DNA of 32,000 nucleotides from Marinicellulosiphila megalodicopiae (GCF_045862395.1 NZ_AP023087.1:1699990-1731989); one strand, 5' to 3'; positions 7,550-32,000 are shown, numbered from the stretch's first letter. Numbers and translations are program-made. Notes: generated by a model not told the origin, from the letters alone.

Positions 7550-7623
7550 GCTTTACTTCTAAAATACATCAGAATTTTTAAAAATGTGTAAATGGTCTAG
7601 TCTTAAAGAGAATTATTGAAATT

Positions 7624-8813: not shown

Positions 8814-9481
8814 TCTTTTTTTGATGTCTTGAATTTTGAAGGTCTCTTCTTCTGGAATGGGCCTTTTTTTGTGGCTGAGTGTTTTGTATTTCTTGGATGA
8901 TTCATGTTTTTAATTGCACTTTTGATTATTGCAGGCGCAGGGTCATCAACCATTAATACCTTTAATTCTCCAGGAGCCAAATCTTGTACTTGCCAGTCAC
9001 CAATGGCACTTCTTACTAAACGCAAACATGGAAAACCAACATTTGCGCACATTCTTCTTACTTGTCTGTTTCTGCCTTCTTTAATTTTTAGCTCAATCCA
9101 ACTTGTGGGGATATTCTTGCGTTCTCTAATTTCTCTGTGCCATAACCAAGTAGGTGGCTCGATGATTGTGCACTTTGCAGGAAGTGTGAATCCGTCCTTG
9201 AGTTCTACGCCATCTTGCAAGGATTGTATGGCTTGATCAGTGATTTCACCTTCAACTTGCGCTAAATAGGTTTTTGCGGATTTGAATTTTGGGTTGGCGA
9301 TTTGTTGATTAAGTGCGCCGTTGTCAGTGAGCAGTAATAAGCCTTCACTGTCGTAATCTAATCTACCTGCTGGATACACTTTTTTGATTTTTATAAATTC
9401 AGCTAAAGTTTGTTTGCCATCAATAGGGCTAAATTGAGACATCACTTTAAACGGTTTATTGAAGAGAATTAATTGTGCCAT
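8810..9481 (-). CDS. rluE: RluE-like rRNA large-subunit pseudouridine synthase
   Basis: [18 protein letters not shown] catalytic motif, [10 protein letters not shown]; basic C-terminal tail. Confidence 0.8.
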
Positions 9482-15654: not shown

Positions 15655-17100
15655 ATGCCAGAGATTCCTCTAAAACCAGAAGATCAAGAATTGTGTCGTA
15701 TTCATGATTATGAATACGAACAATGGGGAGAGCAAAAAGAAAAAGCCAAACCAAAAGCAATGAATGCTGAAAAAAAAATAAAACCAGAAGAGAAGCCAAA
15801 GTATCCAACCATTGACGAGTTGCAGAAAATTCGTGACGATGCTTTTAATGAAGGATTTGAGTTAGGTTATAAAGAAGGTATTGCAAAAGGAAAAAAACAA
15901 GGCGAGGCTGATGGGTTTGAATCAGGTAAAAAAGAAGGTCATGAAGAAGGATTAAAGGCAGGAACCGAAAAAGGGTTGAAAGACGGTTTTGACCAATCAA
16001 AAAAAGACGTTGAAGACACCTATTTAGTAAAATTTAAAAAACAAAATGAAATTTGGCAAAGCGTGATCGATCGATTAAAACAAAGTATTGATGAGCAAGA
16101 TGAAAACATAAAATCATCTTTGACACAGTTGATTGTTCAAATTTGCCGCGGCATTTTTGTGAAAGAAATGGCATTAAAACCCGAGCATATTTTATATATT
16201 GTGAAGCAAGTATTGGATGCGTTACCAAATGACGAACAAAAATTACAAATATTTGTAAATAGTGATGATCATGCAGAATTAGAAAAAGTTATGGATTTTC
16301 ACCCTAATCAAGAACTGCAATACAATATTGATGATGCATTACAAAGTGGGGGGTGCATAGTTAAAGCTAAGTATTCTTATGTGGATTATTCATTATCAAA
16401 ACGTTTTCAAAACCAGTTAAAAGATTTAATGGAATCCGTGACAGAGTTAGATTGGGATTGCATCATTAACTTGCAAAAACCATTGCCTGAAAATGACATC
16501 ATTGAAGAACTTGAGAATGAAGAACTTGAGAGTGAAGAACTTAAGAGTGAAGAACTTGAGATTGAAGGTGAGTTAATAGTTGAGGATGAAATAGAAACTG
16601 AAGAACCTCAAATCGAAGATAAAGAGTCCGTTGAATATGATGGATCAGTTAAAGACGAAGAAATATCAGCAGAGTTAAATGAGCCGACTACTAAAGAAGA
16701 AAGAAATCAAGAAGCTGAAGAGCTTGTAACTGAAGAGCTTGAAACTGAAGTTGTACAAAGTGCTGAAGATAATAAAAAAGAACTAGACAACAAAGAACAA
16801 AGTCAAGAACCATCGTTGACAGAAACAGAAACAGAAACAGAAACAGAAACAGAAACAGAAACAGAAACAGAAACAGAAACAGAAACAGAAACAGAAACAG
16901 AAACAGAAACAGAAACAGAAACAGAAACAGAAACAGAAACAGAAACAGAAACAGAAACAGAAACAGAAACAGAAACAGAAACAGAGCAAAGTAAAGCTGA
17001 AACATTAGATCAACAAGAACAAGAAAAAGAACAAGAAAAAGAAAAAGAACAAGCCGAACAACTGAAAGACGAAATAAAAAAGGACGATAAAAATGTCTGA
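15655..17100 (+). CDS. fliH: Flagellar assembly protein FliH with ~200-aa acidic repeat-rich C-terminal extension
   Basis: Position between fliG and fliI; FliH-type E/K-rich N-terminal region, [36 protein letters not shown] and [29 protein letters not shown]; extension from ~residue 283 to 481. Confidence 0.9.
16504..16563. repeat. 15-bp tandem repeat (GAAGAACTTGAGAGT-like), 4 copies in fliH
   Basis: Copies 16504-16518, 16519-16533, 16534-16548, 16549-16563 encode [20 protein letters not shown]. Confidence 0.9.
16819..16980. repeat. Hexanucleotide tandem repeat (ACAGAA)27 within fliH
   Basis: 27 uninterrupted perfect copies, followed by a degenerate ACAGAG; encodes (TE)n. Confidence 0.99.
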
Positions 17101-18472: not shown

Positions 18473-18916
18473 ATGAAACCACAATCCCAGCGTTTTTTAA
18501 TGGTCTTAAAAGTATATGAACAAAAAGAGAAAAAAATGTCAGACATGTTGCGTGAACTCACCATTCAAAAGCAACAAGAAGAAGAGAAGTTGACACAGCT
18601 TTATGACTATCAAAAACAATACGAAGCCAATTTTCAAATAGAAGCAAAAAAAGGCATTACAGGGTCACAGCTGCATTCACAACAACATTTTATGGCGCAA
18701 CTAGATGATGTAATTAAAGGTCAACACAAAGCACTAAACGATCAAAATCAGTACTTAGAATCTGTAAAAGAAAAATACATGCAAATGTTATTTAAACGGC
18801 AAAATTTTGAAAAACTCATCACTAAAATAAAAAATAAAGAACAGTATCAATTAGATAAAGTTGAACAAAAACTAATGGATGAACTGACCTCACAAATGAT
18901 GCGACGTCAGTATTAA
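18473..18916 (+). CDS. fliJ: Flagellar export protein FliJ
   Basis: 147-aa coiled-coil protein directly abutting fliI; FliJ-like composition. Confidence 0.85.
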   Translation: MKPQSQRFLMVLKVYEQKEKKMSDMLRELTIQKQQEEEKLTQLYDYQKQYEANFQIEAKKGITGSQLHSQQHFMAQLDDVIKGQHKALNDQNQYLESVKEKYMQMLFKRQNFEKLITKIKNKEQYQLDKVEQKLMDELTSQMMRRQY

Positions 18917-18919
18917 ACG

Positions 18920-18945
18920 AAAAACCAGCGATTGCTGGTTTTTTT
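18920..18945. terminator. Terminator after fliJ
   Basis: AAAAACCAGCGATTGCTGGTTTTTTT: ACCAGC/GCTGGT stem with A/T flanks, usable in both directions. Confidence 0.88.
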
Positions 18946-18962
18946 ATATTCAAATACCCCCT

Positions 18963-19310
18963 TTAGTTATTTTGCGTAAACTCATCAAAAGCGCGTAAAG
19001 CGTCCGCGGCATACATCAACGCAGGACCGCCTCCCATATAAACACACATCATTAATACTTCAGCGATTTCATCACGAGTAGCACCTAACTTAATTAACGT
19101 TTTGATATGAAACCCAATACAGCCATCACAATGCTGTGTGATTCCAATTGAAAGCGCGATAAACTCCTTGGTTTTTTTATCAATTAACCCGTCTTTAGTC
19201 GCCGCAGCCGACATCGCATAAAACCCTTTCATCCCCTCTGGCATAGCCTTTTGCAATTCACCCGCATATTGAGAAATGTCTTTGGTGATGGATTGATAGC
19301 TTTTAGTCAT
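18963..19310 (-). CDS. Carboxymuconolactone decarboxylase/AhpD-like protein
   Basis: KTKEFIALSIGITQHCDGCIGFHIKTLIKLGATRDEIAEVLMMCVYMGGGPALMYAADAL (CxxC...H motif). Confidence 0.93.
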   Translation of the reverse strand: MTKSYQSITKDISQYAGELQKAMPEGMKGFYAMSAAATKDGLIDKKTKEFIALSIGITQHCDGCIGFHIKTLIKLGATRDEIAEVLMMCVYMGGGPALMYAADALRAFDEFTQNN

Positions 19311-19558
19311 GGGTTGCCTTTATATTAAGTTTAATTTAATAGTTACATTTAATATTCTATTCGGATTTAATTGTATAGCTTTATGGCATAAGTACGATAT
19401 GCCTGAATGGGTAGGTGGGTTGTTAGCCGTAGGGTGGATTCCATATCCGCCATTTTCTACGCGGCCGATATAAAAATTGTAAGAAATATTTATTTTTCAT
19501 TATTGTCCATGTCAAATATAAAGCCCACCCGAGATAACAATGTGAGTGATAGTTTCTA

Positions 19559-19595
19559 GTCATCTTCAACTGTTTTATCGTTGGAGATCCAGTGG
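19559..19595. repeat. Dispersed repeat family 1, copy A (GTCATCTTCAACTGTTTTATCGTTGGAGATCCAGTGGCT)
   Basis: Closely similar to 22261-22299 and 26711-26749. Confidence 0.75.
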
Positions 19596-19735
19596 CTTTA
19601 GTCTTTGCTTTCAGATTAAAAGTGGATGTTTGTTTTGGTTTTACGATATCTTTACTTGTGAATAAATGATTAAGTAATGTTATTATGGTATGAATCTTCA
19701 AACCCATTAAAATAATAGTTAATCAAAGGAAAATA

Positions 19736-21409
19736 ATGAAATCGGTATTTGTTTTTTTAATCCCCTTTATTGCGATAATGACATTCATAGGCTGTTCAGA
19801 AATTGGTAATGATAACGCAGGTAATGTGCTTGCTGAGCAAGACGTTAAGGCAGACTTTTTTCAATTTACAGACGCAAATGATGTGCAGCCAACACAATTA
19901 ATTGAAAGTAATGAAGTAGTTGTTACTGGAATTAGTGGGAACGTGGCAGTCAGTGTAATTGGAGGGAAATATAGTATTAATGGTAGTAATTATACTAATA
20001 ATAATGGTTACATTAATAATAATGACTCGATCAAAGTTCGAGGGGTGTCTTCTGATCTATATGGTGTCTCGAATAATGTAGAATTAAGTATTGTCAATGC
20101 TTTTTATAATTTTAAAATCACCACAAAACAAGTTCCTGTTATTGGTGTTGAAGATGTTAATTATGAAAGTAATAATGAAATATCTACATCAATTACTGCT
20201 TATAAAGATGAGGTTTACAATGATTTAACTTTTGTTATTAGTGAAAATATAGTTGATGTGGATCATTTTGAATTTTCAGTTAGCTTTGAAGATCAGGAAA
20301 TAATTGCGGATCAAAGTATTAATATAATTGATAATGGACACTCTAAGAAGATTAGCTTTACTCCAAGTTCAGTTGGTCAAACTGTATTAACTGGACTATT
20401 AGTAAATACATTAACGAATGAATCGTTAATAACGACATTGACAGTGAATGTCGTTGAATTACAAATCAAAGCAAATTTGTTTGCTGCATCTAACTCTAGA
20501 GATATGGTTCATAACCCAGCTAACAACACTCTATACATTACAGATGGGAGCGATGTGCTGCATTATGACTTGTTATCTGGCCAGTTACTGGAAAGGATAA
20601 GTGTCGGTGGAAATTTAATTGGTATCGATATTAATCAAAATAATTCACAGTTAGTTGTGGCTGACGGAACAAGATTTGAGAATACAAGTAGTCGATTTGA
20701 TGATGAAGTTAACCTTTATTTTATTGAAATTGATTCTCATGTGGTTTCTTCTATGGTTATAGACGCAGAGTTTGGTGAGTCGGGATCTTATTCAGTGTTA
20801 TATTTACCCGATAATAAAATAATGTTTACCACCGATTATGCTGGCTCTGGTGGTGTTTTAGTAAGGATTGTTGATTTAGGGTCAGATGCGGTTTTATATG
20901 AAAGAAGCATTGAACAACGAACAATGTTAAATGCTAATAATGACAGATCAATCATCGTGCTTTCTGAATCAAATAGTAGTGCTGGGCCATTTGGTATTTA
21001 TAATATTGAGACCAATTTAACAAAGCGGGGTCGAACCGATTCATTTTTGTATGATATTTCCATCGATCGAAATAATGAGTTTGTGGCAATTCCTAGTATT
21101 ATGTCTTTGAAAATATTTGATAATATTGGGAATTTAATAATAAGAATTGATTCAGAAAATTATGGCATACCTTTGGGGGTGGCTTATAGTCCTGTTTCAG
21201 ATTTGCTTTTTGTTCCATGGGCAGATAAATCTAGTATTGGTATATTTAATTCAATAACAAATGAATTTGTTGAGAATATTTCAATTCCGCATATTATGAA
21301 TTGGCATAATAATAAAGGTATGAATGACGGGCGTATTAAAATTTCAAAAGATGGGTCTCTAGGGTTTGTTCAGGTTGTGGGGGGGATTCATAGTTTTATA
21401 ATTCAATAA
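19736..21409 (+). CDS. Putative secreted lipoprotein with Ig-like N-terminal and beta-propeller-like C-terminal region
   Basis: Signal peptide with lipobox-like FIGC; repeated NTLYITDGSDVLHYDLLSGQL / DLLFVPWADKSSIGIFNSITNEFV propeller-like motifs. Confidence 0.7.
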   Translation: MKSVFVFLIPFIAIMTFIGCSEIGNDNAGNVLAEQDVKADFFQFTDANDVQPTQLIESNEVVVTGISGNVAVSVIGGKYSINGSNYTNNNGYINNNDSIKVRGVSSDLYGVSNNVELSIVNAFYNFKITTKQVPVIGVEDVNYESNNEISTSITAYKDEVYNDLTFVISENIVDVDHFEFSVSFEDQEIIADQSINIIDNGHSKKISFTPSSVGQTVLTGLLVNTLTNESLITTLTVNVVELQIKANLFAASNSRDMVHNPANNTLYITDGSDVLHYDLLSGQLLERISVGGNLIGIDINQNNSQLVVADGTRFENTSSRFDDEVNLYFIEIDSHVVSSMVIDAEFGESGSYSVLYLPDNKIMFTTDYAGSGGVLVRIVDLGSDAVLYERSIEQRTMLNANNDRSIIVLSESNSSAGPFGIYNIETNLTKRGRTDSFLYDISIDRNNEFVAIPSIMSLKIFDNIGNLIIRIDSENYGIPLGVAYSPVSDLLFVPWADKSSIGIFNSITNEFVENISIPHIMNWHNNKGMNDGRIKISKDGSLGFVQVVGGIHSFIIQ

Positions 21410-21800
21410 AAAAACTAATGGGGTCGAAGCTGAATGAGACTATGTTAAGCCCCGAAGGCATATAAAAAAGGTCTGCAGAGCTAAAACTCCCTTAAAAAGT
21501 AACAAGACAGTCAGTGATTACGATCCAGTCAGTTTCATTGATTTTTTTCATAAAAGGTTAGTGTAATTAATTTAAGAGATAATCCAGTTGGTTTTTTGGG
21601 TAACTATGTCAAATGTAAGACTCGACCCCGACATACTGAATCGAGTAATATTAAATCAGTAAATATTGTTAGTTATTAGCTATTTTAGAAGGTCAAGTTA
21701 TAGCTTAATTCTTAATAAGATGGATAATAAATGAACATAGAGCATCTACTTTGAATATGATTGAATTAATTGGCAATTCGGTACTGGGGGGAAGTGAATA

Positions 21801-22097
21801 TTGAAATATTTTATTTGTCCTTGTTGTGATAAAAAAACATAACAATCAAGCAGAAAATAATACTGATTTTTAAAATTGAGTATAAATGCCATGAATGCAA
21901 TGAGGCGATATCCGTCTGGAGTGGATATGAAATAATAGGTCGCTTTTCAATTCCGGGGATCGCAATATACATATATTCAATTATGCCAATTGTTAAGAAT
22001 GAGTGGAATTTATTAACAATATTTATTTCATTAAGCCTTTCTACAATACTATATTTCATAATCGGTGTTTTATTTATATCAATTAACAAAAAATAAA
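21801..22097 (+). pseudogene. Frameshifted small zinc-ribbon inner-membrane protein
   Basis: Frame 1 (TTG 21801): LKYFICPCCDKKT*; another frame continues from the A7 tract: NITIKQKIILIFKIEYKCHECNEAISVWSGYEIIGRFSIPGIAIYIYSIMPIV...TIFISLSLSTILYFIIGVLFISINKK*. Joined at 21831-21837 they give a CPCC...CHEC zinc ribbon plus two TM segments. Confidence 0.6.
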
Positions 22098-22168
22098 GTA
22101 CAAAAGTGAGTGTCACTTTTGAGCGTCTTGTGAGCATCTTTCTAATGGGTTAGTTGTGAGTCAATTAT

Positions 22169-22200
22169 GGATCCGACCCCAATATTACGACCCCAATATT
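22169..22200. repeat. GGATCCGACCCCAATATT repeat-family motif, with a second partial copy (CGACCCCAATATT)
   Basis: Same 18-mer occurs at 22357, 22453 and 26835. Confidence 0.8.
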
Positions 22201-22260
22201 AACCTGTAGGTTGCCTTTTAAGGGAACAAAACAACGGTAAGTCAATATGGATAATTACTC

Positions 22261-22299
22261 GTCATCTTCAGCAGGTTTATCGCTGGAGATCCAGTGGCT
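22261..22299. repeat. Dispersed repeat family 1, copy B
   Basis: GTCATCTTCAGCAGGTTTATCGCTGGAGATCCAGTGGCT; compare 19559 and 26711. Confidence 0.75.
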
Positions 22300-22344
22300 T
22301 TGTAATGGGTATGGCGAAATGAGCATCTTTCTATTGGGTTGGCG

Positions 22345-22536
22345 TGTGTCAATTTTGGATCCGACCCCAATATTATTAAAAATAAAAACGTAGGGTTGAG
22401 CTTTAGCTAAAACACTAAAGTGGGTGTCCCTTTTGATCTGTGTGTCAATTTTGGATCCGACCCCAATATTATTAAAAATAAAAACGTAGGGTTGAGCTTT
22501 AGCTAAAACACTAAAGTGGGTGTCCCTTTTGATCTG
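22345..22536. repeat. Perfect 96-bp tandem duplication (2 copies)
   Basis: 22345-22440 and 22441-22536 read identically: TGTGTCAATTTTGGATCCGACCCCAATATTATTAAAAATAAAAACGTAGGGTTGAGCTTTAGCTAAAACACTAAAGTGGGTGTCCCTTTTGATCTG; then a further 14-bp partial (TCCCTTTTGATCTG). Confidence 0.97.
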
Positions 22537-22619
22537 TCCCTTTTGATCTGCTTTTGGGTGGTTGATAGTCTTATTAATGTTAATCTTGAGATGGTTGTGA
22601 AATAGTTATTTTTATCATG

Positions 22620-22648
22620 TTGACCGATCGGTCAGTAGTGGGTAGTAT
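22620..22648 (+). promoter_or_regulatory. Promoter TTGACC-N17-TAGTAT overlapping a palindromic operator TGACCGATCGGTCA (22621-22634)
   Basis: Perfect 14-bp palindrome of the TetR/NemR operator type overlapping the -35, immediately upstream of a TetR gene. Confidence 0.75.
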
Positions 22649-22679
22649 TGTGCTTAACTTAATGTAAAAAACAAATCAA

Positions 22680-23219
22680 ATGCATACTACAAAATTGAAA
22701 ATATTAAATCACACTATCCAATTGATTGGTGAGGAAGGACTATCAGGATTAAGTGCAGGTAACTTAGTCAAACAAATAGGCATAAGTAAATCAACAATAT
22801 TTCACCATTTCGAAAGTATTGACCAGCTCTTAATTGAATCGTTTGACTTGCTTATTGAGCAATTATTTATACAACAAGATGTAAAATACCCTTCATCGCA
22901 AGAGTATTTAGATGCTTTGGGTGAACAAACATTATATGCCTGTGAACATTATAATAAATTCATTACTGCTTATTTTATGTTTTTCACGAAATCTATTTTC
23001 AATAATGACATTAAACAAAAACTAAAAAGATCAATTAATAAATTTAAATGCAATATGAAAAATGACTTGTCAGCCTATTTTTCTAAAGAAGAGGCTGAAG
23101 ACTATGCCGAATTAATATTCACTAGTTTAGATGGTATGGCTATTCACTTTTTAATCTTTAAAAATAACCAAAAATTCATGAAGTCTTGGAAACTTTTATC
23201 AAATAAACTAATAACGTAG
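22680..23219 (+). CDS. TetR/AcrR family transcriptional regulator
   Basis: N-terminal HTH: ILNHTIQLIGEEGLSGLSAGNLVKQIGISKSTIFHHFESIDQLLIESF. Confidence 0.9.
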   Translation: MHTTKLKILNHTIQLIGEEGLSGLSAGNLVKQIGISKSTIFHHFESIDQLLIESFDLLIEQLFIQQDVKYPSSQEYLDALGEQTLYACEHYNKFITAYFMFFTKSIFNNDIKQKLKRSINKFKCNMKNDLSAYFSKEEAEDYAELIFTSLDGMAIHFLIFKNNQKFMKSWKLLSNKLIT

Positions 23220-23229
23220 GGCTTTAATT

Positions 23230-23790
23230 ATGTGGTTAACAAATGATATAAATATCATTAAATCTATGCATGATGTGTTTGGGTTAAAACAGAGTGTATT
23301 TTCAATTCTTTCCATTTTTAGCTTCTCTATACTCAGTACCATTTTATTATTGTATATCGGATGGGATTTTTTAAGTGAATTAGCGTTATGGAAAACAATC
23401 GTTGCAATGGTGATTGTTTTAGATATTAATGCTGGATTAATTGCCAACTTTACAAAGGGTACTAATGATTTCTACCAAAATGAACCTAAAAAAAGATGGA
23501 TCTTTATCTCGATTCATTTCCATGTATTAATTGTTGCTTGGCTGTTTGAAGTTGAAAGTTATAGTGCAGTCGTTATTTCTTGGGTGGCTACAATATCAGT
23601 TGCGTCGATGCTGAATATATTGAAAAGTAGCGCGTGGAGTTCAATGCAGAGAATAGTCGCTGCAGTGTGTCTAGGGTTGGGCTTAATTTTAATCATGGTT
23701 TTAAATTGGTCGAATTTAGTTTTACAAATAGTGGCTATGTTGTTTTATATTAAAGTGGCTTATAGCTTTTCGGTTAACCACTATGAATAA
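23230..23790 (+). CDS. Integral membrane protein of unknown function (about 5-6 TM segments)
   Basis: Hydrophobic segments; 11 nt after the TetR gene and overlapping the following GNAT gene by 8 nt. Confidence 0.7.
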   Translation: MWLTNDINIIKSMHDVFGLKQSVFSILSIFSFSILSTILLLYIGWDFLSELALWKTIVAMVIVLDINAGLIANFTKGTNDFYQNEPKKRWIFISIHFHVLIVAWLFEVESYSAVVISWVATISVASMLNILKSSAWSSMQRIVAAVCLGLGLILIMVLNWSNLVLQIVAMLFYIKVAYSFSVNHYE

Positions 23791-24412
23791 TATACAGTAT
23801 TATGAATTAACAAAAGCAGACGTAAAGCAAGCTGTTGATTTAATTGAATTAAGCTTTAGGCAGGATCCAATGTTTTTGTCTATATTTAGAAGTATAAAAT
23901 GTCGAAAGTTTTTTATTCATTATTTAATCAAACAAAATAATATTATCGGTGGAGCAACAACTGTTGCGATTAGTCAAAATAAAATGGTCGCTGTTTATTT
24001 ATTAAAACCCTATATTGCTAATCGATTTATTAATTTTCTAAAAGAATGCCAAGCGTTTATAGTCTTTTTACCACTTTTATTTAAGATTGGATTAAAATCA
24101 AGCAAACAGTTAAATGATTATTATAAAATAATTTCAAAAACAAAACCTAAAGGCCCACACTCATACCTCACTTTAATTGCGGTGAGTGATCATGCGAAGG
24201 GGCGAGGTGTGGGAAAAATGGTTTTACAAAATATTATTGAGCGACTACAAATTGAAAACAAATCTCAGGCATTGTTACTAGACACTGAAAACAAAGAAAA
24301 TATCGGATTTTATGAACATTTAGGTTTCACACTAACTCAAACTAAATCCGTCAATGAACTTAATATTTACTCTATGAAAAAAGTTAGTTCAGACATCCAA
24401 AATAAAAACTAG
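23783..24412 (+). CDS. GNAT-family N-acetyltransferase
   Basis: LIAVSDHAKGRGVGKMVLQNIIERLQ...LLDTENKENIGFYEHLGFTLTQ (motif A and B). Confidence 0.85.
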   Translation: MNNIQYYELTKADVKQAVDLIELSFRQDPMFLSIFRSIKCRKFFIHYLIKQNNIIGGATTVAISQNKMVAVYLLKPYIANRFINFLKECQAFIVFLPLLFKIGLKSSKQLNDYYKIISKTKPKGPHSYLTLIAVSDHAKGRGVGKMVLQNIIERLQIENKSQALLLDTENKENIGFYEHLGFTLTQTKSVNELNIYSMKKVSSDIQNKN

Positions 24413-24470
24413 GCTAATCCCCAAAAAAGAGCATTTTTTGTCCAAAATCTCAAAATCAAAACTAATCAAG
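24410..24470. repeat. ~60-bp direct repeat, left copy
   Basis: TAGGCTAATCCCCAAAAAAGAGCATTTTTTGTCCAAAATCTCAAAATCAAAACTAATCAAG; compare 25759-25820. Confidence 0.85.
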
Positions 24471-24527
24471 ATACCCAAGGTAAACCCTATAAGTTATTAT
24501 GAATATCTAATTAATGTGGAAATAAAA

Positions 24528-24968
24528 ATGGAATTCATAGAATTTAATAGCAATAGCCCACTGTATGAAGAAACAATGGAGCTTCGATATCACACCTTCT
24601 TTAAAAATTTTGGTTTGCCTAAGTCAGTCACACCCGATGAGCTAGAACCAGAAAGCATTCATTTGGCGTTGCTAAATCAATCAGAAATTCTGGCTTATGG
24701 TAGGTTGTCACCACTTGAAAATGGTGTGTTTAGAATCTCTCAAATCATAGTGCCTGAAATGCATCGTAAAATCGGCTATGCGACAGCACTGCTATTAAAG
24801 CTCATAAAACGTGCTCAGTCACTTGGGGCGACTAGCATTCAATTGAATGCTCAAGTATCGGCACAAAAGCTCTACGAAAATTGTGGTTTTGTTGCTAGTG
24901 AAAAACCATACAAAGTAAAACTAACAGGCGTTGAACACGTAAAAATGGTGGCGACACTATCCACGTAA
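24528..24968 (+). CDS. GNAT-family N-acetyltransferase (ElaA-like)
   Basis: MEFIEFNSNSPLYEETMELRYHTFF...RISQIIVPEMHRKIGYATALLLKLIKRAQSLGATSIQLNAQVSAQKLYENCGFV. Internal ATG at 24528 chosen over the ORF-track start at 24438. Confidence 0.88.
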   Translation: MEFIEFNSNSPLYEETMELRYHTFFKNFGLPKSVTPDELEPESIHLALLNQSEILAYGRLSPLENGVFRISQIIVPEMHRKIGYATALLLKLIKRAQSLGATSIQLNAQVSAQKLYENCGFVASEKPYKVKLTGVEHVKMVATLST

Positions 24969-25084
24969 CAGGCAGGTAGCATTGCCACTTTGTGGTCACA
25001 ATTTTTGGTGTAACAACCAAATTGATAATCTAGAAAAAGTAAATGAATACGAGAAACGCTTTCAATTGAACTTGCACAAAAATC

Positions 25085-25202
25085 CTATAACAAAGACGAT
25101 TAAAACAAGGCAATTAAAGCGGACACCCAAATCTTGGCTGGTGCTCGTTGCTCATAACCATTATAGCCAAGTATTTATTGCCGTTTATTACGGCGTCAGG
25201 TG
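25085..25202. other. Integron attC-like site (degenerate)
   Basis: CTATAACAA...GGCAATTAAAGCGGAC...CTTGGCT (25133-25139)...AGCCAAG (25165-25171)...TTTATTGCC (25174-25182)...TTACGGCGTCAGGTG. Imperfect dyad with extrahelical-base-like asymmetry, between two GNAT genes in the same orientation. Confidence 0.55.
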
Positions 25203-25206
25203 TTTG

Positions 25207-25671
25207 ATGAAAACGATTGAAAAAATCTCTTACCGTAAGGCGACTGAGAAAGACATTCCACAGCTTATTGAACTTCGTATCAAACAGCTTATAGATGAAG
25301 GATACCCTGAAATCAGAGACATTCGTCACGAGTTGCAAACGTATTTTGCAAACAGCTTAAGTAATGGCTCGCTGGTTTGTTGGCTTGGGCTCAGTAACGA
25401 TATAATTATCGCCACTGGTGGGCTTTGTTTTTATCAACTCCCTGGTTCTTTTTCTAATCCAACTGGAACCAATGCGTATATAACCAATATGTACACTGAC
25501 GATCAATTTCGTAAACAGGGCATTGCATCATTATTAATTGATAAACTTTTAGTTGAGGCAAAAGAACGAGGCTTTGTATCTGTAAAACTGCATGCATCAA
25601 CCCATGGAAAAAGTGTTTACGAAAAAGCGGGTTTTGTAAAAGCGGACGGTTATATGGGATTGACGTTTTGA
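25207..25671 (+). CDS. GNAT-family N-acetyltransferase
   Basis: MKTIEKISYRKATEKDIPQLIELRIKQL...YITNMYTDDQFRKQGIASLLIDKLLVEAKERGFVSVKLHASTHGKSVYEKAGFV. The 75 upstream residues in the track ORF translate the attC-like region. Confidence 0.92.
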   Translation: MKTIEKISYRKATEKDIPQLIELRIKQLIDEGYPEIRDIRHELQTYFANSLSNGSLVCWLGLSNDIIIATGGLCFYQLPGSFSNPTGTNAYITNMYTDDQFRKQGIASLLIDKLLVEAKERGFVSVKLHASTHGKSVYEKAGFVKADGYMGLTF

Positions 25672-25758
25672 GTTTTACCATTAAGTAAACTAATTAATCC
25701 TATGCGTTAAAATAGGGTGAATCGATAGCAAGCTAAACCAGACAACCAAAGTAAAACT

Positions 25759-25820
25759 TAGGCTAATCCCAAAAAGATTAGCCTTTTTTTGTACAAAATT
25801 TCAAAATCAGGACTAATCAA
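25759..25820. repeat. ~60-bp direct repeat, right copy, containing an intact terminator hairpin
   Basis: TAGGCTAATCCCAAAAAGATTAGCCTTTTTTTGTACAAAATTTCAAAATCAGGACTAATCAAG; perfect GGCTAATC/GATTAGCC stem followed by T-run. Confidence 0.88.
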
Positions 25821-25983
25821 GCCGCCATAAAAAAACCAACAAATCATTATGGTCACCTCACAATCCATGCTCATCAACCGCCAATATCCATGATGTACAA
25901 GAATAAATGGAACAAGTTCGAAATAATGTACATACTTGGTGAATATAGCAATTGTGTTGCAACAACAGATAGGCGGAACCATC

Positions 25984-26217
25984 ATGGCTAAAGGCAGTAT
26001 TTTTACAAACAATCGAACCCAAGCAGTGCGATTACCTGCGCAAATGCGTTTTGATGATGATATAAAGCAGGTAAGTGTCAGAATCGTAGGTAAAGAGCGT
26101 ATTCTTTGCCCATTAGAGAACACCTGGGACAGTTTCTTTATGCAGGATCAAAGCGTAGATGACGATTTTATGTCAGAGCGTGCCGAGCAAACTGAAACAA
26201 AGCGTGAGTCGTTTTAA
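25984..26217 (+). CDS. vapB: VapB-family antitoxin
   Basis: MAKGSIFTNNRTQAVRLPAQMRFDDDIKQVSVRIVGKERILCPLENTWDSFF; start at 25984 fits the family better than 25936. Confidence 0.9.
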   Translation: MAKGSIFTNNRTQAVRLPAQMRFDDDIKQVSVRIVGKERILCPLENTWDSFFMQDQSVDDDFMSERAEQTETKRESF

Positions 26218-26228
26218 TACTCAAATAT

Positions 26229-26624
26229 ATGCGCAATACAAACATTGTCATATACATTATAAAGCGCCGCCCAATTGAAGTATTGACTCAGTTTAATAAC
26301 CACCAAGGACAATTATGCATTAGTAGCGTGACCTTGGCGGAGTTAATTCATGGGGTTGAAAAAAGCGAAAGACCTGAGCACAACCTTAAGCAAGTAGAAG
26401 ATTTTATTTCACGCTTAGAAGTGCTTGATTATCAAAGTGGTGCCGCGTTTCATTATGGTGAAATACGAGCGAATTTAGAAAAAAAAGGCACCACCATAGG
26501 TGTGAATGATTTGCATATTGCAGGGCATGCTCGAAGTGAAGGGTTGATTATTGTCACAAATAATTTAAAAGAATTTGATCGCGTAGAAGGATTGCGTTGT
26601 GAAAACTCGGTGGCAGAGCACTAG
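26229..26624 (+). CDS. vapC: VapC-family PIN-domain toxin with altered first catalytic motif
   Basis: MRNTNIVIYIIKRRP...ISSVTLAELIHGVEKS...GVNDLHIAGHARSEGLIIVTNNLKEFDRVEGL; immediately after vapB. Confidence 0.9.
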   Translation: MRNTNIVIYIIKRRPIEVLTQFNNHQGQLCISSVTLAELIHGVEKSERPEHNLKQVEDFISRLEVLDYQSGAAFHYGEIRANLEKKGTTIGVNDLHIAGHARSEGLIIVTNNLKEFDRVEGLRCENSVAEH

Positions 26625-26649
26625 TTTAATATTGGCGCCCAATAAAATA

Positions 26650-26676
26650 GAGCTCGATTTAATCGAGCTTTTTTTG
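26650..26676. terminator. Terminator after vapC
   Basis: AGCTCGAT-TTA-ATCGAGCT stem (26651-26669) followed by a T-run. Confidence 0.9.
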
Positions 26677-26710
26677 TGCCTGTTGGTTATAGAAGAGGAA
26701 AGCTTCACTC

Positions 26711-26749
26711 GTCATCTTCAACTGTTTTGTCGTTGGGGATCCAGTGGCT
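26711..26749. repeat. Dispersed repeat family 1, copy C
   Basis: GTCATCTTCAACTGTTTTGTCGTTGGGGATCCAGTGGCT. Confidence 0.75.
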
Positions 26750-26834
26750 GCGGTTTTAGTTTGATGGTTAAAAGTGAAAGGGCAGTCAAAATGTGGGTGA
26801 TGGCTTGCCTTCATAACTATCCTAAAAAAAATTT

Positions 26835-26955
26835 GGATCCGACCCCAATATTGCAAAAGAACAACAAGAAGTACCAAAAGTGGATGTGAATTTGGGTTCT
26901 TGTTTTCCTCTAGATTGCCTTTTAAGAGAACAAAAGCAACGGTAAGTCAATGTGG
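26835..26955. repeat. Composite repeat: GGATCCGACCCCAATATT (26835-26852) plus ATTGCCTTTTAAGAGAACAAAAGCAACGGTAAGTCAATGTGG (26914-26955)
   Basis: Both modules recur near 22169 and 22210-22250 in the same order. Confidence 0.75.
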
Positions 26956-27083
26956 GTGAGTGCTTGCCCTCATGGGAAATAATTCAAAAGTGGGCGTCGC
27001 TTTTGATAGCTATTGGGTTTTTTGAACGCTCTTTGTTGTATAATTAGATTCACTAAAAAACAAGACACTCTCAAAGGGAATGC

Positions 27084-28091
27084 ATGGAAATCGAAACGTT
27101 ATTAACCCCACTGATTAAACCCTTTGTATATTTTGTAATATTTTCAATTTTTGTGGCAGTGATCAAGTCTGCTTGGTTCAAAGGTAAACTAGGGGAGTTT
27201 AAGGTTAATCTATTGCTGAAGTTGTTTCTAAATAAAGCACAGTATCATCTAATTAAAAATGTCACGTTACCGACCTTTGATGAATCAGGTCAGCACAGCG
27301 GAACCACACAGGTTGATCATATTGTAGTGAGTGCATTTGGTGTGTTTGTGATTGAAACCAAACATTTTAAAGGTTGGATATTTGGCAGTGAGTTCCAAAA
27401 GCAGTGGACACAACAGATTTACAAACATAAATCGAGATTCCAAAACCCGTTACTGCAAAACTACAAACATTGTAAAACCATAGAAAACCTGTTGGGTTTA
27501 GATGGCACTGACAAACAAGACAAGACCAAACGTTTGATCAAAAGCTTGGTGGTATTCACAGGCAGTGCTGAGTTTAAAACCGAGCTTCCAACGAATGTGT
27601 GTTATGACTCAAAACTGATTAAAACAATTAAAGGATTTAAAACCCAATTATTAGACGCACAGCAAGTGGCAAAAATAATCGAACAGATAGAATCTGGCCG
27701 ATTAAAGCGTGGGTTTGTTACTGACAAACAACATGCCGAGCATGTGAAGGTACTTGTTAAAGACAGTCAGTCAAGAGGCGGGAAAAGAGATAGTCAAAGA
27801 GTTACCCAAAGAGTAACGTCGTCAGGTAAACATGACAGACAGGGTGGTTTGAAGCGGGGTAGTAGAGTGGGTAGTGAGGTGGTTAGGTCTGAGATTGCTC
27901 GTGAAACTAGCGCTCAAGACTAGGCTAACCATAATTCAACTGATGGTGTTTTGATTGCTGATGTTGAACCTGAGTGTCCTAAATGTGGTGGGGGGATGGT
28001 GAAACGTCAATCTAAAACAGGTCAGTATGCAGGTGTCCCGTTTTTTGGGTGTTCGGCTTTTCCTAAGTGTCGAGGTTTGGTTCGGGATTGA
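27084..28091 (+). pseudogene. NERD-domain protein with C-terminal topoisomerase-type zinc finger, interrupted by in-frame TAG at 27921-27923
   Basis: NERD nuclease-like motifs GEFKVN...TTQVDHIVVSAFGVFVIETKHFKGWIFG; after the TAG the same frame continues ANHNSTDGVLIADVEPECPKCGGGMVKRQSKTGQYAGVPFFGCSAFPKCRGLVRD*. The track ORF stops at 27923. Confidence 0.8.
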
Positions 28092-28229
28092 AGTTGGCTG
28101 AAGCCTGAAATCGTGATTTTATAACGCTTTTCCGTTGAACTTAATGGCTGATGGGGGACGCGACTTCGTTATTTCCGGAAAGAGCTCAGTTGCTCAGACT
28201 CATTTCATGTTGGACAAGGCTTAAGCTCT

Positions 28230-28259
28230 TGATAAAGAAGTCTTTAGTGTAATATATTA
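28230..28259 (+). promoter_or_regulatory. Candidate promoter for the SIR2-STAND gene (TTGATA-N18-TATATT)
   Basis: Consensus-like hexamers 31 bp upstream of the ATG at 28290. Confidence 0.35.
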
Positions 28260-28289
28260 ACGGGAATATATATTTAATAAGACTTTTTT

Positions 28290-31200
28290 ATGAACGATAT
28301 CCAAATACCTGACTTTCTAAAAAAGTCCTTAGCTAGTGGCGAAGTTATTCCTTTGATTGGTGCTGGTGTTTCAATGTCAATTAAAACCAAGGAAGGTGAA
28401 AAAGCATTTCCTTCTTGGTCCGAATTACTTTTTAATGCAGCAGAAAAGCTAGAGAAAGAAGATAGTCAACTTGTTAAGCTTCAAGTAAAAAGAGGGAAGC
28501 TGCAACGCGCGGCTGAAGAAGCACAGGAGCTTCTAACAGGTCGTCCTTGGGGGGACTTTCTTAACTCACAGTTTTCTATTAATTTCAAAGAATTAGATGT
28601 TAGAGGTAAAGCGCTTCCTAAAGCTATTTGGCGATTAAGTAATAGAGTTGTCACTTTGAATTATGACAAGGTTCTTGAATGGGCTCACGAAGAATCTGCA
28701 AATTTATGTGTTTTTGACAATTCTAATTGCACTCAACTTTCAGAGTTTTCAAGACCAAGTCAACAAGAGATGCTCTGGCATTTGCACGGCACAATTGAAC
28801 ACCCAAAACACATGGTACTTACTCCGCAATCATACCACCGCTTATACGAAGAAGAAGCTGAAAAAAACTACAAAGCAGCGCTTACCAAGTTTAGAGAGGT
28901 GATTAGCAATAAGATCATTCTTTTTATTGGTTGCTCACTTGATGACGCAGAACTACTCGCTGAAATAGTGAAACAAAACGAGCTATTTGATGGGAATACT
29001 GGCCCTCATTATGCGCTGGTAAGAAAAACGGATGAACAGGAAATCAAGTCTAAGTTAACAGATAGTCATGTTCAAACCATTACTTTTAGTGATTTTGGTC
29101 AACCACTTATTGATGCTGTCACACAATTAGCTGAATGCAAAAAACAGCAACAGCTAGCAATCAATAATGAAAAAGAACTTAACCAACAACCTAAACTTGA
29201 CAATGACAAAGAACAAAAAAAGAAATTCAATAAAATAAGCCTGTTTACGGCCTCACCTTTAGATAAACCATTAGATGAAATTGATATCATCGCAAAACTT
29301 AAAAAATATAAATACCCTATTTTTCAACAAGCTTTCACCGAAAATAACCTAATGCAAGCCGATGATTACTCAATTATTTTATTACTCGCCAAGAAAACGA
29401 ATGGCGGACTTCTAATTGAAGATGATAATGCTTGTAGTGATTATTTAACTATTGAGGAGTTAGAACAAAACTTGCCAGTGAATGCTAAATTAACAGTATT
29501 GATAACGGACAAGTTACTTAGTGAGCAAGAACTAAAAACAATTAACTTTCCTTTGCTTGTTTTACCTGTATTAAATAAGCAGGGGAAAGATTTAAACATT
29601 CTAGATAAATTAACTCACCAGCTGTTTAAAAAACAGGATATTAAACCCTTTGTTGATAAAGAAGACATTCAATTAGTACAAGTTAGCGACGAGTTATTGA
29701 AGTCACTTAACCCTGAAAATCGAAAGGATTGGTTGAAGCATAATCCTGTATTACCCCGTGATATTAACTCAAGTGAGCTACAAGGTTTTACTGGGCGATT
29801 ATCTGATTTAGCTGATATTAGTCAAAAACTTACCAAAGCGGCGAATGGCCAAAGATTATTAACCATCAAGGGGAGTGGCGGGCTAGGAAAAACTACGATA
29901 GCAAAAAAAGTTGCATTAGAATTAGCCAATCGTGGCCGCTTTGATGCAGGCGTTTACTTTGTTGATTGTGAAAGTATAACCAGCGTAAATCAACTTGAAA
30001 TGCATATAGGTGAAGCTTTTAAATTACGCTCCGCTGATGATTTATTTGGCTACTTGGCGCAACATCACGATCAGCTTAGTCGCTTGTTGATTTTTGATAA
30101 TTTAGAAAGTTTGCTGTATTTAAAAAAATCTGACAAACAGCAAAACAAACAAGCTGTAGATCAAGTTAAAATTTTGTTATCACGTACTTTGATGTATGCG
30201 AACGTATTAGTGACCTCAAGAGAGATTATGAACACTGAATGGGAAGATGTGCTGTCGTTCAGGCAAATGGAATCTGAAGAGGCGCTAACCCTATTTAATC
30301 GTTTAACCAAAAATAACTATCTCAACGAAGATGATCAGGGCTATGTACGTAGGAAAATTTTAGAGCCGCTACTTAACAATAATCCGTTAGCTATTAAACT
30401 TATTTGTGATGGCATGCCTAATGGTAAGTGCTTAAAAGGGTTGAAAAAAGAGTTAGAAGATGACTTTTTTGGTAAGGTCAAAGAAGAAGATTTAATCTTG
30501 ATGTTTGACGATGAAGTTGACGCTAATATTAACCGCCAAGAATCGCTTTACGTTTCTATTCTATATTCATATGAAACGCTAAATAATAGTCAGAAGAGAG
30601 CGCTTGAATCATTTTCTCTATTTCCAGATGGTATTGACTTAAAAACCTTTAAGGCTTTGGTAGCAGAAAGCAAAAAAAGTGACCGAAACCAATACGAGAA
30701 TAAATTTAAAAAACCCGTTAGCGACAAAGATATTACGGTACTTGCAAATAAATCATTAATTGAAAGTAATAATGGAATTTATTCTCTACAGTCTGTCATT
30801 CAACGTTTTTCCCGTTTTCGATTTGACCAAAACACTCAAGAAAAAGATAAGATTGAACTTTTTAGAGGAGCACTTCGTTATAATGAGAAAACGCTGGAGT
30901 TTATTCAAAAATTAGAGAGAGTAAATAAAAAAGCAATCCCTCTATTTCTTTCAATCGTAAATAACTTATTCGCTGCAATTACCTATGGAACTAAAGAAAA
31001 TGTTGTGAGAAATTCAGAAGAAATAGAAGATTATTTTCATATGGTAAGAGCAATTAAAAACTTATCAATTACATTGAACTTATCTCACGACTTTTTAACC
31101 GTACTTAATGAAAATGCTATTGAACATCTCATCACTGAAAATAATAAAGAACAGCTAGAATTAGCATGGCAACTATTTAAAGTTAGCTCTATGTATTATA

Positions 31201-32000
31201 ACGGGGAATTTGATACTGCGTACAGCCAGTTAAATTCATTAATCCCTGTTAAGCTATTAATGACTATCTATGAAAATGATGAAAATGATGAACTTAATAA
31301 TATAATTTATCATACGGCGCAACACGTATATTCCATGGAAGGTGATATTATCAATAATGTTTTGCATATTGAAAAGTTTAATCAGTATCGCTATTTTACG
31401 TTAGTAGCATCTCAAGTACAAACAGCAATGAATGTTGAGCCATTGATGAAGCTGGTTATTCCTGACTTAGATTACTTCGAAGCGCAAAGTTATTTAAGTG
31501 AGGGTGTAGACCTTAATCAAATAAATAAAGTGATTGATGAGTTGCACGAGAATGAACATTTAGACCGAGTAAATTTAACTTATATTAAGTCACGTGATGA
31601 GTATGTGAATTATGAGGTTATCGAAAAATTAGTTAATGTAAACCCTTATACGAGAGGTTTAAAAAGACTGATGTATGCACTTTCATTTGAACATAAATTA
31701 CTTGCTGAAGAGGCTAACCCTGAAAAGAGTATTCCTGACGAGCATAATATCGAATTAAATAATAGGGTTATCGGTTATTATCAATCAGCATTAACTGATT
31801 TAAAGCATATCAAATTTTACTACGTGCAAGCACTTTATTTTTATGCGAGGTTTCTACAAAAAACAGATAATAAAAATTTCGAAAAAGTCTATGAAAACGG
31901 ATTACAATTAACGAAAAAACACCATTATCGTCTTTGGCAACATAAGTTTCATTTGTTGAAACAGCCAGCATTAGGGCCCTATAAACCTGAGAACTATCCT
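28290..32000 (+). CDS. SIR2-like / NB-ARC STAND NTPase / long alpha-helical C-terminus protein; putative anti-phage defence protein (3' end outside window)
   Basis: Open frame for >=1237 codons with no stop, absent from the supplied ORF track. SIR2: VIPLIGAGVSMS (GAGVS 28359-28373), VVTLNYDKVLEWA, LHGTIEHP, IILFIGCSLDDAELL (GCSLDD 28929-28946). STAND: GSGGLGKTT (from 29871), LLIFDNLESLL (30084-30116), VLVTSREI, NNPLAIKLI. Confidence 0.93.
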   Translation, partial: MNDIQIPDFLKKSLASGEVIPLIGAGVSMSIKTKEGEKAFPSWSELLFNAAEKLEKEDSQLVKLQVKRGKLQRAAEEAQELLTGRPWGDFLNSQFSINFKELDVRGKALPKAIWRLSNRVVTLNYDKVLEWAHEESANLCVFDNSNCTQLSEFSRPSQQEMLWHLHGTIEHPKHMVLTPQSYHRLYEEEAEKNYKAALTKFREVISNKIILFIGCSLDDAELLAEIVKQNELFDGNTGPHYALVRKTDEQEIKSKLTDSHVQTITFSDFGQPLIDAVTQLAECKKQQQLAINNEKELNQQPKLDNDKEQKKKFNKISLFTASPLDKPLDEIDIIAKLKKYKYPIFQQAFTENNLMQADDYSIILLLAKKTNGGLLIEDDNACSDYLTIEELEQNLPVNAKLTVLITDKLLSEQELKTINFPLLVLPVLNKQGKDLNILDKLTHQLFKKQDIKPFVDKEDIQLVQVSDELLKSLNPENRKDWLKHNPVLPRDINSSELQGFTGRLSDLADISQKLTKAANGQRLLTIKGSGGLGKTTIAKKVALELANRGRFDAGVYFVDCESITSVNQLEMHIGEAFKLRSADDLFGYLAQHHDQLSRLLIFDNLESLLYLKKSDKQQNKQAVDQVKILLSRTLMYANVLVTSREIMNTEWEDVLSFRQMESEEALTLFNRLTKNNYLNEDDQGYVRRKILEPLLNNNPLAIKLICDGMPNGKCLKGLKKELEDDFFGKVKEEDLILMFDDEVDANINRQESLYVSILYSYETLNNSQKRALESFSLFPDGIDLKTFKALVAESKKSDRNQYENKFKKPVSDKDITVLANKSLIESNNGIYSLQSVIQRFSRFRFDQNTQEKDKIELFRGALRYNEKTLEFIQKLERVNKKAIPLFLSIVNNLFAAITYGTKENVVRNSEEIEDYFHMVRAIKNLSITLNLSHDFLTVLNENAIEHLITENNKEQLELAWQLFKVSSMYYNGEFDTAYSQLNSLIPVKLLMTIYENDENDELNNIIYHTAQHVYSMEGDIINNVLHIEKFNQYRYFTLVASQVQTAMNVEPLMKLVIPDLDYFEAQSYLSEGVDLNQINKVIDELHENEHLDRVNLTYIKSRDEYVNYEVIEKLVNVNPYTRGLKRLMYALSFEHKLLAEEANPEKSIPDEHNIELNNRVIGYYQSALTDLKHIKFYYVQALYFYARFLQKTDNKNFEKVYENGLQLTKKHHYRLWQHKFHLLKQPALGPYKPENYP

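Follow-up and report, generated by a model that had tools for sequence, protein, structure and literature searches.

The 32,000-nt stretch of the Marinicellulosiphila megalodicopiae genome analyzed here (the window; GCF_045862395.1, NZ_AP023087.1:1699990-1731989) ends within a large plus-strand gene, which encodes a protein joining a SIR2 domain to a STAND-type NTPase and a long helical C-terminus. Translation of the interval 28290-32000 (+) gives one stop-free frame of 1237 codons; the remaining five frames of the same interval carry 63-182 stops each, and their longest open run does not exceed 80 codons. Given the base composition (34% G+C, a stop probability of 0.078 per codon), the probability of meeting no stop over 1237 codons is about 1e-43. 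The frame is missing from the mechanical list of open reading frames (ORFs) because it runs off the window end; both this omission and the uninterrupted frame of at least 1237 codons had been pointed out in a preliminary description made from the sequence, and both were confirmed. The full ORF, which that description proposed to seek beyond position 32000, is supplied by an identical database protein of the same species, WP_422382300.1 (P0001), annotated by NCBI as an intact 'SIR2 family protein'. This protein is 1275 aa long and is 100% identical across all 1237 residues encoded in the window. The last 38 residues therefore lie outside the window, and the gene is expected to end at a stop codon near 32117.

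Modules were delimited by combining profile and fold searches with an AlphaFold2 (AF2) model of residues 1-1200, which was built from an alignment of 77 sequences and is confident overall (pLDDT 87, pTM 0.71). Conservation was read from the same 77 homologues, which share 29-88% identity, and from a second alignment of 43 sequences. The NOD (nucleotide-binding oligomerization domain) is made up by a nucleotide-binding domain (NBD), a helical domain (HD) and a winged-helix domain (WHD). The gene and its features are arranged as follows:

28229..28258 (+): promoter-like candidate TTGATA-18-TATATT (10/12), from a consensus scan, 32 nt 5' of the ATG
28290..32000 (+): gene for the SIR2-CHAT-like-NB-ARC-sensor protein, codons 1-1237 of 1275, from the open frame and the identical P0001
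28290..29159 (+): SIR2 NADase-type effector domain, residues 1-290, from Pfam SIR2_2, PADLOC, PDB profile and Foldseek
28659-28661 and 28785-28787 (+): catalytic SIR2 residues N124 and H166, respectively, invariant in the 77 sequences
29160..29225 (+): linker, residues 291-312, low-confidence and poorly conserved; effector-swap boundary
29226..29639 (+): probable degenerate CHAT/caspase-like alpha/beta domain, residues 313-450, from AF2, Foldseek and hhalign
29418-29420 and 29508-29510 (+): E377 (invariant) and D407 (at the catalytic Cys position), from the alignment of the CHAT-like domain
29640..29789 (+): pre-NOD segment, residues 451-500, from the CHAT-like domain to the NBD, as elements of the AF2 model
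29790..30269 (+): NBD of the NOD, residues 501-660, from Pfam matches, invariant motifs and PDB profile matches
29889-29891, 30096-30098 and 30219-30221 (+): K534 of Walker A (GSGGLGKTT), D603 of Walker B (LLIFDN) and R644 of sensor-1 (TSR), respectively
30270..30839 (+): helical and winged-helix domains of the NOD, residues 661-850, from the NB-ARC match (to 713) and AF2
30384-30386 (+): P699 of the NNPLA (GxP-type) motif, in the helical/winged-helix region of the NOD
30840..32000 (+): putative all-helical C-terminal sensor, residues 851-1237 (to 1275 in the full protein), from the AF2 model

Promoter-type sites in the region are no more numerous than expected from shuffling, and TTGATA-18-TATATT is to be taken as a candidate only. 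All eight motifs on which the preliminary description had based its domain assignment were found in place, GAGVS at residue 24, TLNYD at 122, LHG at 165, GCSLDD at 214, GSGGLGKTT at 528, LLIFDN at 599, VTSRE at 641 and NNPLA at 697, and the residues there proposed for mutagenesis (N124, H166 and the P-loop lysine K534, codon 29889-29891) are the correct ones. Profile searches, which could have revealed a fold unrelated to Sir2 or the lack of an NTPase module, detected both SIR2_2 and NB-ARC.

The SIR2_2 match (PF13289) spans residues 119-258 (E 7e-23, 81.7 bits vs. a cut-off of 24.5), and G26, S28, T122, N124, H166 and D219 are invariant in the 77 sequences, so that the N-terminal module foreseen from the motifs is borne out. 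Searches of PDB sequences with the family profile relate this part to FAM118B (1.5e-14), ThsA (1e-11) and KomC (1e-10). In PADLOC-DB v2 two SIR2-bearing models, LmuA-SIR2 (1e-19) and ThsA (1e-15), were matched in addition to mad8; no Avs model was, which is weak evidence alone, the inclusion of an AVAST type V model in that database being unconfirmed.

The NB-ARC-like P-loop NTPase also proved real. The Pfam NB-ARC match spans residues 508-713 (E 4e-12, 46.3 bits vs. a cut-off of 23.5), and the same region scores above the Pfam cut-offs for AAA_22, nSTAND3 and NACHT. Positions G528, G530, G531, G533, K534, T535, D603-N604 and R644 are invariant in the 77 sequences; P699 reaches at least 90% conservation there and 100% in the alignment of 43 sequences. 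The motif at the MHD position reads LQS. In the model the helical/winged-helix region consists of helices and a beta-hairpin at 825-832. By family profile, the NOD is related to PDB sequences of Roq1 (1.3e-5), AfsR (1.7e-4) and Apaf-1 (6.5e-3), as well as ADR2 and MLA13. In NCBIfam, AfsR and FxSxx/HaaT TPR proteins are matched by the NOD, in all cases far below threshold (34 vs. 300 bits).

In the AF2 model, about 560 residues at the C-terminus adopt a helical structure, in agreement with the long helical C-terminus anticipated earlier, and no Pfam repeat family (TPR, Sel1, PPR) matches this region. Conservation varies along the protein. Mean pairwise identity is 43-48% in the SIR2, NBD, HD and WHD modules, 35% in the CHAT-like domain, 25% in the pre-NOD segment, where L488 and I492 are nearly invariant, and 18% in the linker, in which residues 297-310 have a pLDDT below 50. 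The putative sensor is the most variable module, with a mean identity of 23% in residues 851-1000, and identity climbs again toward the C-terminus. Such a profile would be expected of a ligand-binding sensor, the putative role of the helical region.

The stretch between the SIR2 domain and the P-loop had been regarded in the preliminary description as a mere path from one module to the next, and a separate folded domain was missed. Residues 313-450 form in the full model a compact alpha/beta domain (pLDDT >90), with a short extension to residue 500; modelled alone with AF2, the domain has a pLDDT of 89 and a pTM of 0.83. The top four Foldseek matches in the PDB are chains of SAVED-CHAT 8TL0 (E 1.3e-4 to 3.8e-4, TM-score 0.51-0.55), followed by caspase-11, caspase-8, MALT1 and Craspase, mixed with generic Rossmann-like folds. 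A hhalign comparison of the middle-domain alignment with the genuine CHAT domains of homologues from cable bacteria gave an E of 3e-5 over 113 columns. Control comparisons with reversed CHAT, TIR, Mrr, phosphoesterase, SIR2 and NBD profiles gave E values of 0.18-0.65 over 1-27 columns; the best control was the HD/WHD profile, with an E of 0.016. In the alignment, the conserved Glu and Pro of CHAT correspond to the invariant E377 and P421, the catalytic His corresponds to K368, in a variable column, and the catalytic Cys to D407 (Asp in 86%, Asn in 12% of sequences). Between residues 300 and 500 of the 77 sequences, the frequency of His exceeds 25% in no column and that of Cys exceeds 52% in none, and no conserved His/Cys dyad is found there. 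The Pfam CHAT model (PF12770) matched none of 30 middle-domain sequences, even at E<=10, and a search of PDB sequences with the middle domain was without match. By fold comparison the domain has the caspase-hemoglobinase fold, and it lacks both the His-Cys dyad and a PF12770 match. Since the Foldseek and hhalign results, with clean controls, point to CHAT and the dyad is absent, it can be described with moderate confidence as a degenerate CHAT/caspase-like domain, incapable of cysteine protease activity.

Pfam CHAT matches found in Electrothrix homologues were considered as matches of the middle domain, and rejected: they correspond to an extra, genuine CHAT domain at the N-terminus. In three such proteins (P0062, P0094 and P0099, from Candidatus Electrothrix and related organisms), a genuine CHAT domain followed by SIR2 precedes the chassis that carries the degenerate domain.

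A hidden Markov model (HMM) of the middle domain, run over 1.84 billion cluster representatives, retrieved 131 proteins only. Nearly all have the same architecture, with a length of 1160-1270 aa and the CHAT-like domain at about 280-500. What varies is the N-terminal module. Among 88 representatives that have such a module it is SIR2 in 72, TIR in five, Mrr in two, CHAT in one and CHAT plus SIR2 in another; in the remaining seven, not assigned by BLAST, it is Metallophos (calcineurin-like phosphoesterase) in two, HD-CE in one, PRTase-CE in one and DUF4062, above cut-off, in another; of the last two, one shows a weak DUF4062 match and the other a weak EAD11 match below cut-off. DUF4062 has been reported as a TIR-like NADase (bioRxiv 10.64898/2026.05.01.722283). 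The TIR, Mrr and CHAT variants can be aligned to the protein from residues ~300-309 to ~1256, with 29-33% identity and E values of 6e-94 to 5e-137. The boundary of the swap coincides with the disordered linker. Since homology of the effector variants begins at the CHAT-like domain, this domain belongs to the switch and the sensor, not to the effector; by these alignments, the CHAT-like domain, the NB-ARC module and the helical sensor form a fixed chassis. Conflict systems of the Avs/NLR type are defined by just such an exchange of effectors on a constant NOD and sensor (PMC12803255; PMC8195603). Swapping among cell-killing or NAD-consuming enzymes can be regarded as a strong argument, the strongest available, for a predicted immune function.

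Further variation was observed at both ends of single family members. P0074, from Vibrio, carries a Phage_CI_C domain (E 1e-12) ahead of SIR2. The Mrr variant P0195 (1391 aa) extends by ~250 aa (~1143-1391) past the shared chassis, and the C-terminal extension holds the motif 'FVEGKTDK', reminiscent of Toprim/OLD-type domains.

Full-length relatives are distributed in a patchy manner in Proteobacteria, Desulfobacterota, Bacillota, Bacteroidota and Campylobacterota. Gammaproteobacteria are represented by Pseudoalteromonas and Idiomarina, with homologues 67-70% identical to the protein, and by Colwellia, Moritella, Vibrio and Photobacterium; others reside in Betaproteobacteria, Desulfobulbia, Desulfuromonadia, Paenibacillus, Clostridium and Peribacillus. 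Plasmid-borne relatives adjoin serine recombinases or integrases. In the Metabacillus plasmid pBY2G20 (positions 6468-9231) the homologue, beside a serine recombinase, is split into three ORFs annotated as a 'SIR2 family protein' of 160 aa, an 'ATP-binding protein' of 519 aa and a hypothetical protein, and is a decayed copy. All-vs-all clustering of the flanks of 27 full-length homologous loci revealed no conserved partner gene, hence a single-gene system is indicated. Clusters of flanking genes were considered as candidate partners and rejected, being generic paralogue families only (histidine kinases, ABC ATPases). The 132 neighbours in these 27 loci give scattered PADLOC matches (NERD+UvrD, mads, DRT-type reverse transcriptases, dCTPase, QatC, type IV restriction endonuclease), for which there is no background rate for comparison. 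No match to the protein was found by tblastn in phage records. In the viral fold library only generic AAA+ matches were obtained, and no viral protein with a fold related to the CHAT-like domain.

The preliminary description had suggested an Avs5-like protein or a new anti-phage sensor, and proposed comparison of a model with Avs5 and NLR-like structures. In a Foldseek search of the PDB with the full model, the first ranks are taken by EfAvs5 (9JAP; 1216 aligned columns, E 1.5e-11) and by 9NC9, an 'AVAST5 filament', followed by ThsA, DSR2, RPP1, FAM118B (TM-score 0.75, SIR2 domain), KomC and NRC proteins; identity in the Avs5 structural alignments is 12%. As in Avs5, a single gene encodes a PF13289 SIR2 domain with the catalytic Asn, a STAND NOD (NBD-HD-WHD) with intact Walker A and B motifs and a helical C-terminus, here the putative sensor, and sensing of a phage protein, oligomerization and NAD+ hydrolysis would probably be common to both. 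N124 aligns with the TNY motif T140-N141-Y142 of EfAvs5. Differences are also evident. The protein (~1275 aa) is ~450 aa longer than the compact SIR2-NOD architecture of Avs5 (~790-840 aa), carries the additional CHAT-like domain, has a putative sensor roughly twice as long, without match to TPR, Sel1 or PPR, the Pfam repeat families of the helical Avs5 sensors (SAMD9-like cluster), and a NOD of the NB-ARC type: nSTAND3 (PF20720), the annotation of PaAvs5, reaches 29.4 bits (cut-off 27.2), and NB-ARC, at 46.3 bits, is the better match. The SIR2 Asn lies 410 aa away from the Walker A Lys, vs. 238 aa in EfAvs5 (N141 to K379), and the invariant H166 corresponds to Asn180 of EfAvs5. Neither 9JAP nor 9NC9 was found at E<=1 by phmmer or by the 43-sequence profile run against all PDB sequences. 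None of six accessions of the family is listed among the 335 Avs5 sequences (Table S1, PMC12931631), a set assembled by PSI-BLAST from PaAvs5 plus the Gao 2020 list, and homologues in the first ~40 of its 335 rows are ~710-840 aa long. On the features compared, the protein belongs to a family different from Avs5, of the same general design. The likeness to Avs5 noted earlier holds for architecture and probable logic, and does not extend to membership of the Avs5 family, similarity at the HMM level being undetected.

Other known systems share single parts of the protein. Avs1-4 and the wider Avs families are, as the family described here, tripartite single polypeptides with interchangeable N-terminal effectors on NOD and sensor, encoded by single genes of patchy distribution. 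The catalogue of Lee et al. (PMC12803255/PMC13581612) comprises at least 90 Avs families, and in the portion of it considered here no named family is described with a degenerate CHAT domain (pseudo-CHAT) between effector and NOD; the family may already be one of the 198 unnamed defence-associated clades of that survey. SAVED-CHAT (8TL0), Craspase TPR-CHAT/Csx29 and caspases have the same fold and CHAT sequence pattern as the middle domain, which differs because shorter (~140 aa), devoid of the catalytic His and Cys, and placed inside a STAND protein; it implies no protease substrate, and in concept comes closer to cFLIP and other pseudo-caspases. ThsA (Thoeris), DSR1/DSR2, KomC, SIR2-HerA and human FAM118B are SIR2 relatives with the same Asn/His catalytic pair. 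FAM118B, ThsA and KomC are the closest solved ones by sequence, FAM118B by fold too. These proteins are controlled by SLOG and gcADPR, a tail-tube sensor, HerA or their own filaments, none by a fused NB-ARC NOD. The NOD of the protein, detected by NB-ARC and featuring Walker A/B, TSR and GxP-type motifs, is of the kind known from Roq1, RPP1, NRC, ZAR1, Apaf-1 and AfsR, its PDB profile matches including plant TNLs and CNLs, Apaf-1 and AfsR, and the TIR-bearing variants of the family mirror plant TNLs. In contrast to plant and animal NLRs, the protein is bacterial, has a helical sensor rather than LRR or WD40 repeats, a SIR2 effector, a CHAT-like insert and LQS in place of MHD.

Upstream in the window, a gene for monomeric isocitrate dehydrogenase is followed by fliF-G-H-I-J, ending at 18916. 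Between fliJ and the SIR2-STAND gene there are small or unknown ORFs, dispersed repeats, a TetR gene, three tandem GNATs, an antitoxin and PIN toxin pair and a NERD gene. In place of fliK and later genes, fliFGHIJ is followed by variable sequence over 13 kb or more (18916-28290 and on), which suggests an island inserted after fliJ; its G+C content is not clearly different from that of the flanks. The PIN/VapC toxin is paired with a weak MazE/AbrB-type antitoxin. The NERD gene (27084-28091, +; Pfam 8e-31) is stopped by an in-frame TAG at 27921-27923. The 55 codons that follow the TAG in the same frame specify a C4 zinc ribbon of the topoisomerase type (Zn_ribbon_Top1, E 1.3e-9); the NERD plus Zn-ribbon gene looks nonsense-interrupted, or possibly read through. 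PADLOC recognizes no neighbour in the window, except for a weak match of NERD to PglW. The preliminary description had seen the neighbourhood as fitting a defence island. Genes of the vapBC and NERD types and repeats are indeed present, but the NERD gene is broken, no known system is adjacent and neighbours are not conserved; the region is at best a variable one with toxin-antitoxin (TA) modules, and constitutes weak evidence for defence.

A dispersed repeat with a conserved core of ~45 nt (CTCGTCATCTTCAACTGTTTTATCGTTGGAGATCCAGTGGCT) is found at 19556-19624, 22258-22326 and 26708-26776, at three junctions after fliJ. It is accompanied by a recurring motif (GGATCCGACCCCAATATT), and repeats are also present at 22145-22535 and 26829-26975. 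The dispersed repeat has no Rfam match, and could be a MITE-like element or a set of insertion scars. An intergenic, perfect 96-nt tandem duplication (22344-22537; 2.0 copies, 100% identical) overlaps the dispersed-repeat motif. An integron cassette array was considered for the same-strand GNAT and TA genes with repeats and rejected, as neither regular attC-like repeats nor Rfam matches were found. A 557-aa ORF lying between dispersed repeats (19736-21409, +) has no Pfam or PADLOC match. The fliH gene (15655-17100, +) is unusually long: its product has 481 aa, of which residues 135-253 form the FliH domain. Within the gene, a perfect (ACAGAA)x27.8 array at 16819-16985 is read in frame as Thr-Glu repeats, and 15-nt repeats lie at 16503-16567 and 16711-16750; the array may encode a slippage-prone, length-variable acidic tail overlapping the start of fliI.

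The intact ORF, the identity of the domains, the conservation of the catalytic residues, the absence of the dyad, the swap boundary, the lack of a conserved partner and the gradient of conservation taken together, the most likely function of the gene product is to detect infection by phage and then to destroy cellular NAD+. At rest, the protein would be a closed, nucleotide-bound monomer, with the SIR2 domain silent. A phage protein would bind to the fast-evolving C-terminal helical domain, and the NOD would open and oligomerize in a nucleotide-dependent manner via K534, D603 and R644. The CHAT-like domain would pass the oligomeric state to the N-terminal effector, probably by pairing or stacking induced by proximity, as caspase folds do, and the clustered SIR2 domains would hydrolyze NAD+ via N124 and H166; the pool would be depleted, and phage replication would stop. 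We infer the trigger, the oligomerization, the NADase activity, the adaptor role and the anti-phage phenotype from the precedents of Avs5, ThsA/DSR and NLRs; Avs5 depletes NAD+, and defence by Avs5 requires the SIR2 Asn, Walker A/B and the sensor (PMC11897194, PMC12931631). A single-protein, NLR-like anti-phage sensor of a family distinct from Avs5, working through the whole of this chain, is favored as reasonably probable, and the core of an immune sensor is more likely than the entire chain. The NLR-like layout put forward in the preliminary description, and the single-protein anti-phage sensor predicted from it, are supported by profiles, invariant catalytic residues, the model, the top fold matches to Avs5 and effector swaps.

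Some results lend themselves to other explanations. The protein might represent a divergent clade of Avs5 (AVAST type 5) with an insertion, acting as EfAvs5 and PaAvs5 do, filaments included, the middle domain being incidental. By fold, the full model is matched best by the two solved filaments of Avs5, domain order and Pfam families (PF13289, and PF20720 just above its cut-off) are the same, and accepted Avs5 clades are only 18-21% identical among themselves (PMC12931631), so that the line between the family and Avs5 is partly definitional. Yet 9JAP and 9NC9 escape searches at E<=1 that do detect FAM118B, ThsA, KomC and plant NLRs, the six family accessions are missing from the 335-sequence table, the first ~40 rows of which list much shorter proteins, and the 410-aa spacing, the invariant His and the preference of the NOD for the NB-ARC model set the protein apart. 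The middle domain is moreover kept in every effector variant, hence is not incidental, and this explanation is held to be unlikely. A different function may be imagined for the CHAT-like domain itself, as a second sensing surface, an integrated decoy for phage protease inhibitors or a small-molecule site. A CHAT-like core with the invariant E377, Asp or Asn at the Cys position and no dyad, a conservation (35%) between that of the core (about 45%) and that of the sensor (23%), and the presence of a genuine CHAT beside the middle domain in some relatives are all consistent with it, and Kaur et al. (PMC7159879) proposed that inactive enzyme domains may serve as decoys in conflict systems. In all variants, however, the domain lies between effector and NOD, where a transmission element would be expected, a faster-varying sensor is already provided by the large helical C-terminus, and there is neither evidence of a ligand nor a protein of related fold in the viral library; the odds are clearly against this role, and transmission from NOD to effector is preferred.

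Explanations that do not invoke active immunity fit the data less well. The protein could be a non-immune STAND regulator of protein deacylation or NAD metabolism, related to AfsR/MalT, as the weak resemblance in NCBIfam between the NOD and AfsR or FxSxx/HaaT TPR proteins, the sharing of the NOD by actinobacterial LuxR/BTAD regulators, and the flagellar and housekeeping surroundings, with no known defence system adjacent, may suggest. But no DNA-binding or output domain is present besides SIR2_2, the NADase-type SIR2 of ThsA, DSR and Avs5, the NCBIfam matches reach 34 bits where 300 are needed, the distribution is patchy and includes plasmids, and the exchange of TIR, Mrr, CHAT, HD and phosphoesterase modules on the same chassis makes no sense for a metabolic regulator; this alternative is highly improbable. 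Hardly more credit is given to the gene being the decaying relic of a mobile island, non-functional in this genome. The adjacent NERD gene broken by the in-frame TAG, the repeat scars and 96-nt duplication upstream, and the fragmented homologue of the Metabacillus plasmid would all agree with decay; the 1275-codon frame is however intact and annotated as such by NCBI, every catalytic residue is present, and a promoter-like candidate site lies upstream.

SIR2-STAND sensors are already known from Avs5, and the basic finding is unsurprising. The literature searched appears to hold no description of a second SIR2-STAND lineage, unrelated to Avs5 in sequence and with an NB-ARC-type NOD, of the conserved pseudo-CHAT module of the chassis, or of so broad a range of effectors swapped at one boundary, and the PADLOC-DB v2 models for the annotation of defence genes do not recognize the family. 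It is a tentative idea, rather doubtful at present, that the pseudo-CHAT domain is a new built-in NLR module, either a universal proximity adaptor or an integrated decoy. If the former holds true, the domain would be a bacterial counterpart of cFLIP, turning NOD oligomerization into the activation of at least eight unrelated effectors; if the latter does, it would bait phage inhibitors of caspase-like defence proteases. Either principle would be undescribed for bacterial STAND immunity, and would parallel the caspase-recruiting apoptosomes and inflammasomes or the integrated decoys of plant NLRs.

SIR2-STANDs are an active topic, concerning for Avs5 the activation by filaments, the gp1.7 and JADA triggers, and the links to human SAMD9 and FAM118. 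The family described here indicates that SIR2 on STAND exists on a second chassis, the NOD of which is nearer in sequence to plant R-proteins and Apaf-1 than that of any solved Avs, and that a probably dead caspase-like domain sits where the effector meets the switch. One gene with eight natural effector swaps offers a tractable system in which to learn how NOD oligomerization reaches chemically unrelated effectors, and is relevant to a possible bacterial antecedent of the partnership between caspases and NLRs in animal apoptosomes and inflammasomes.

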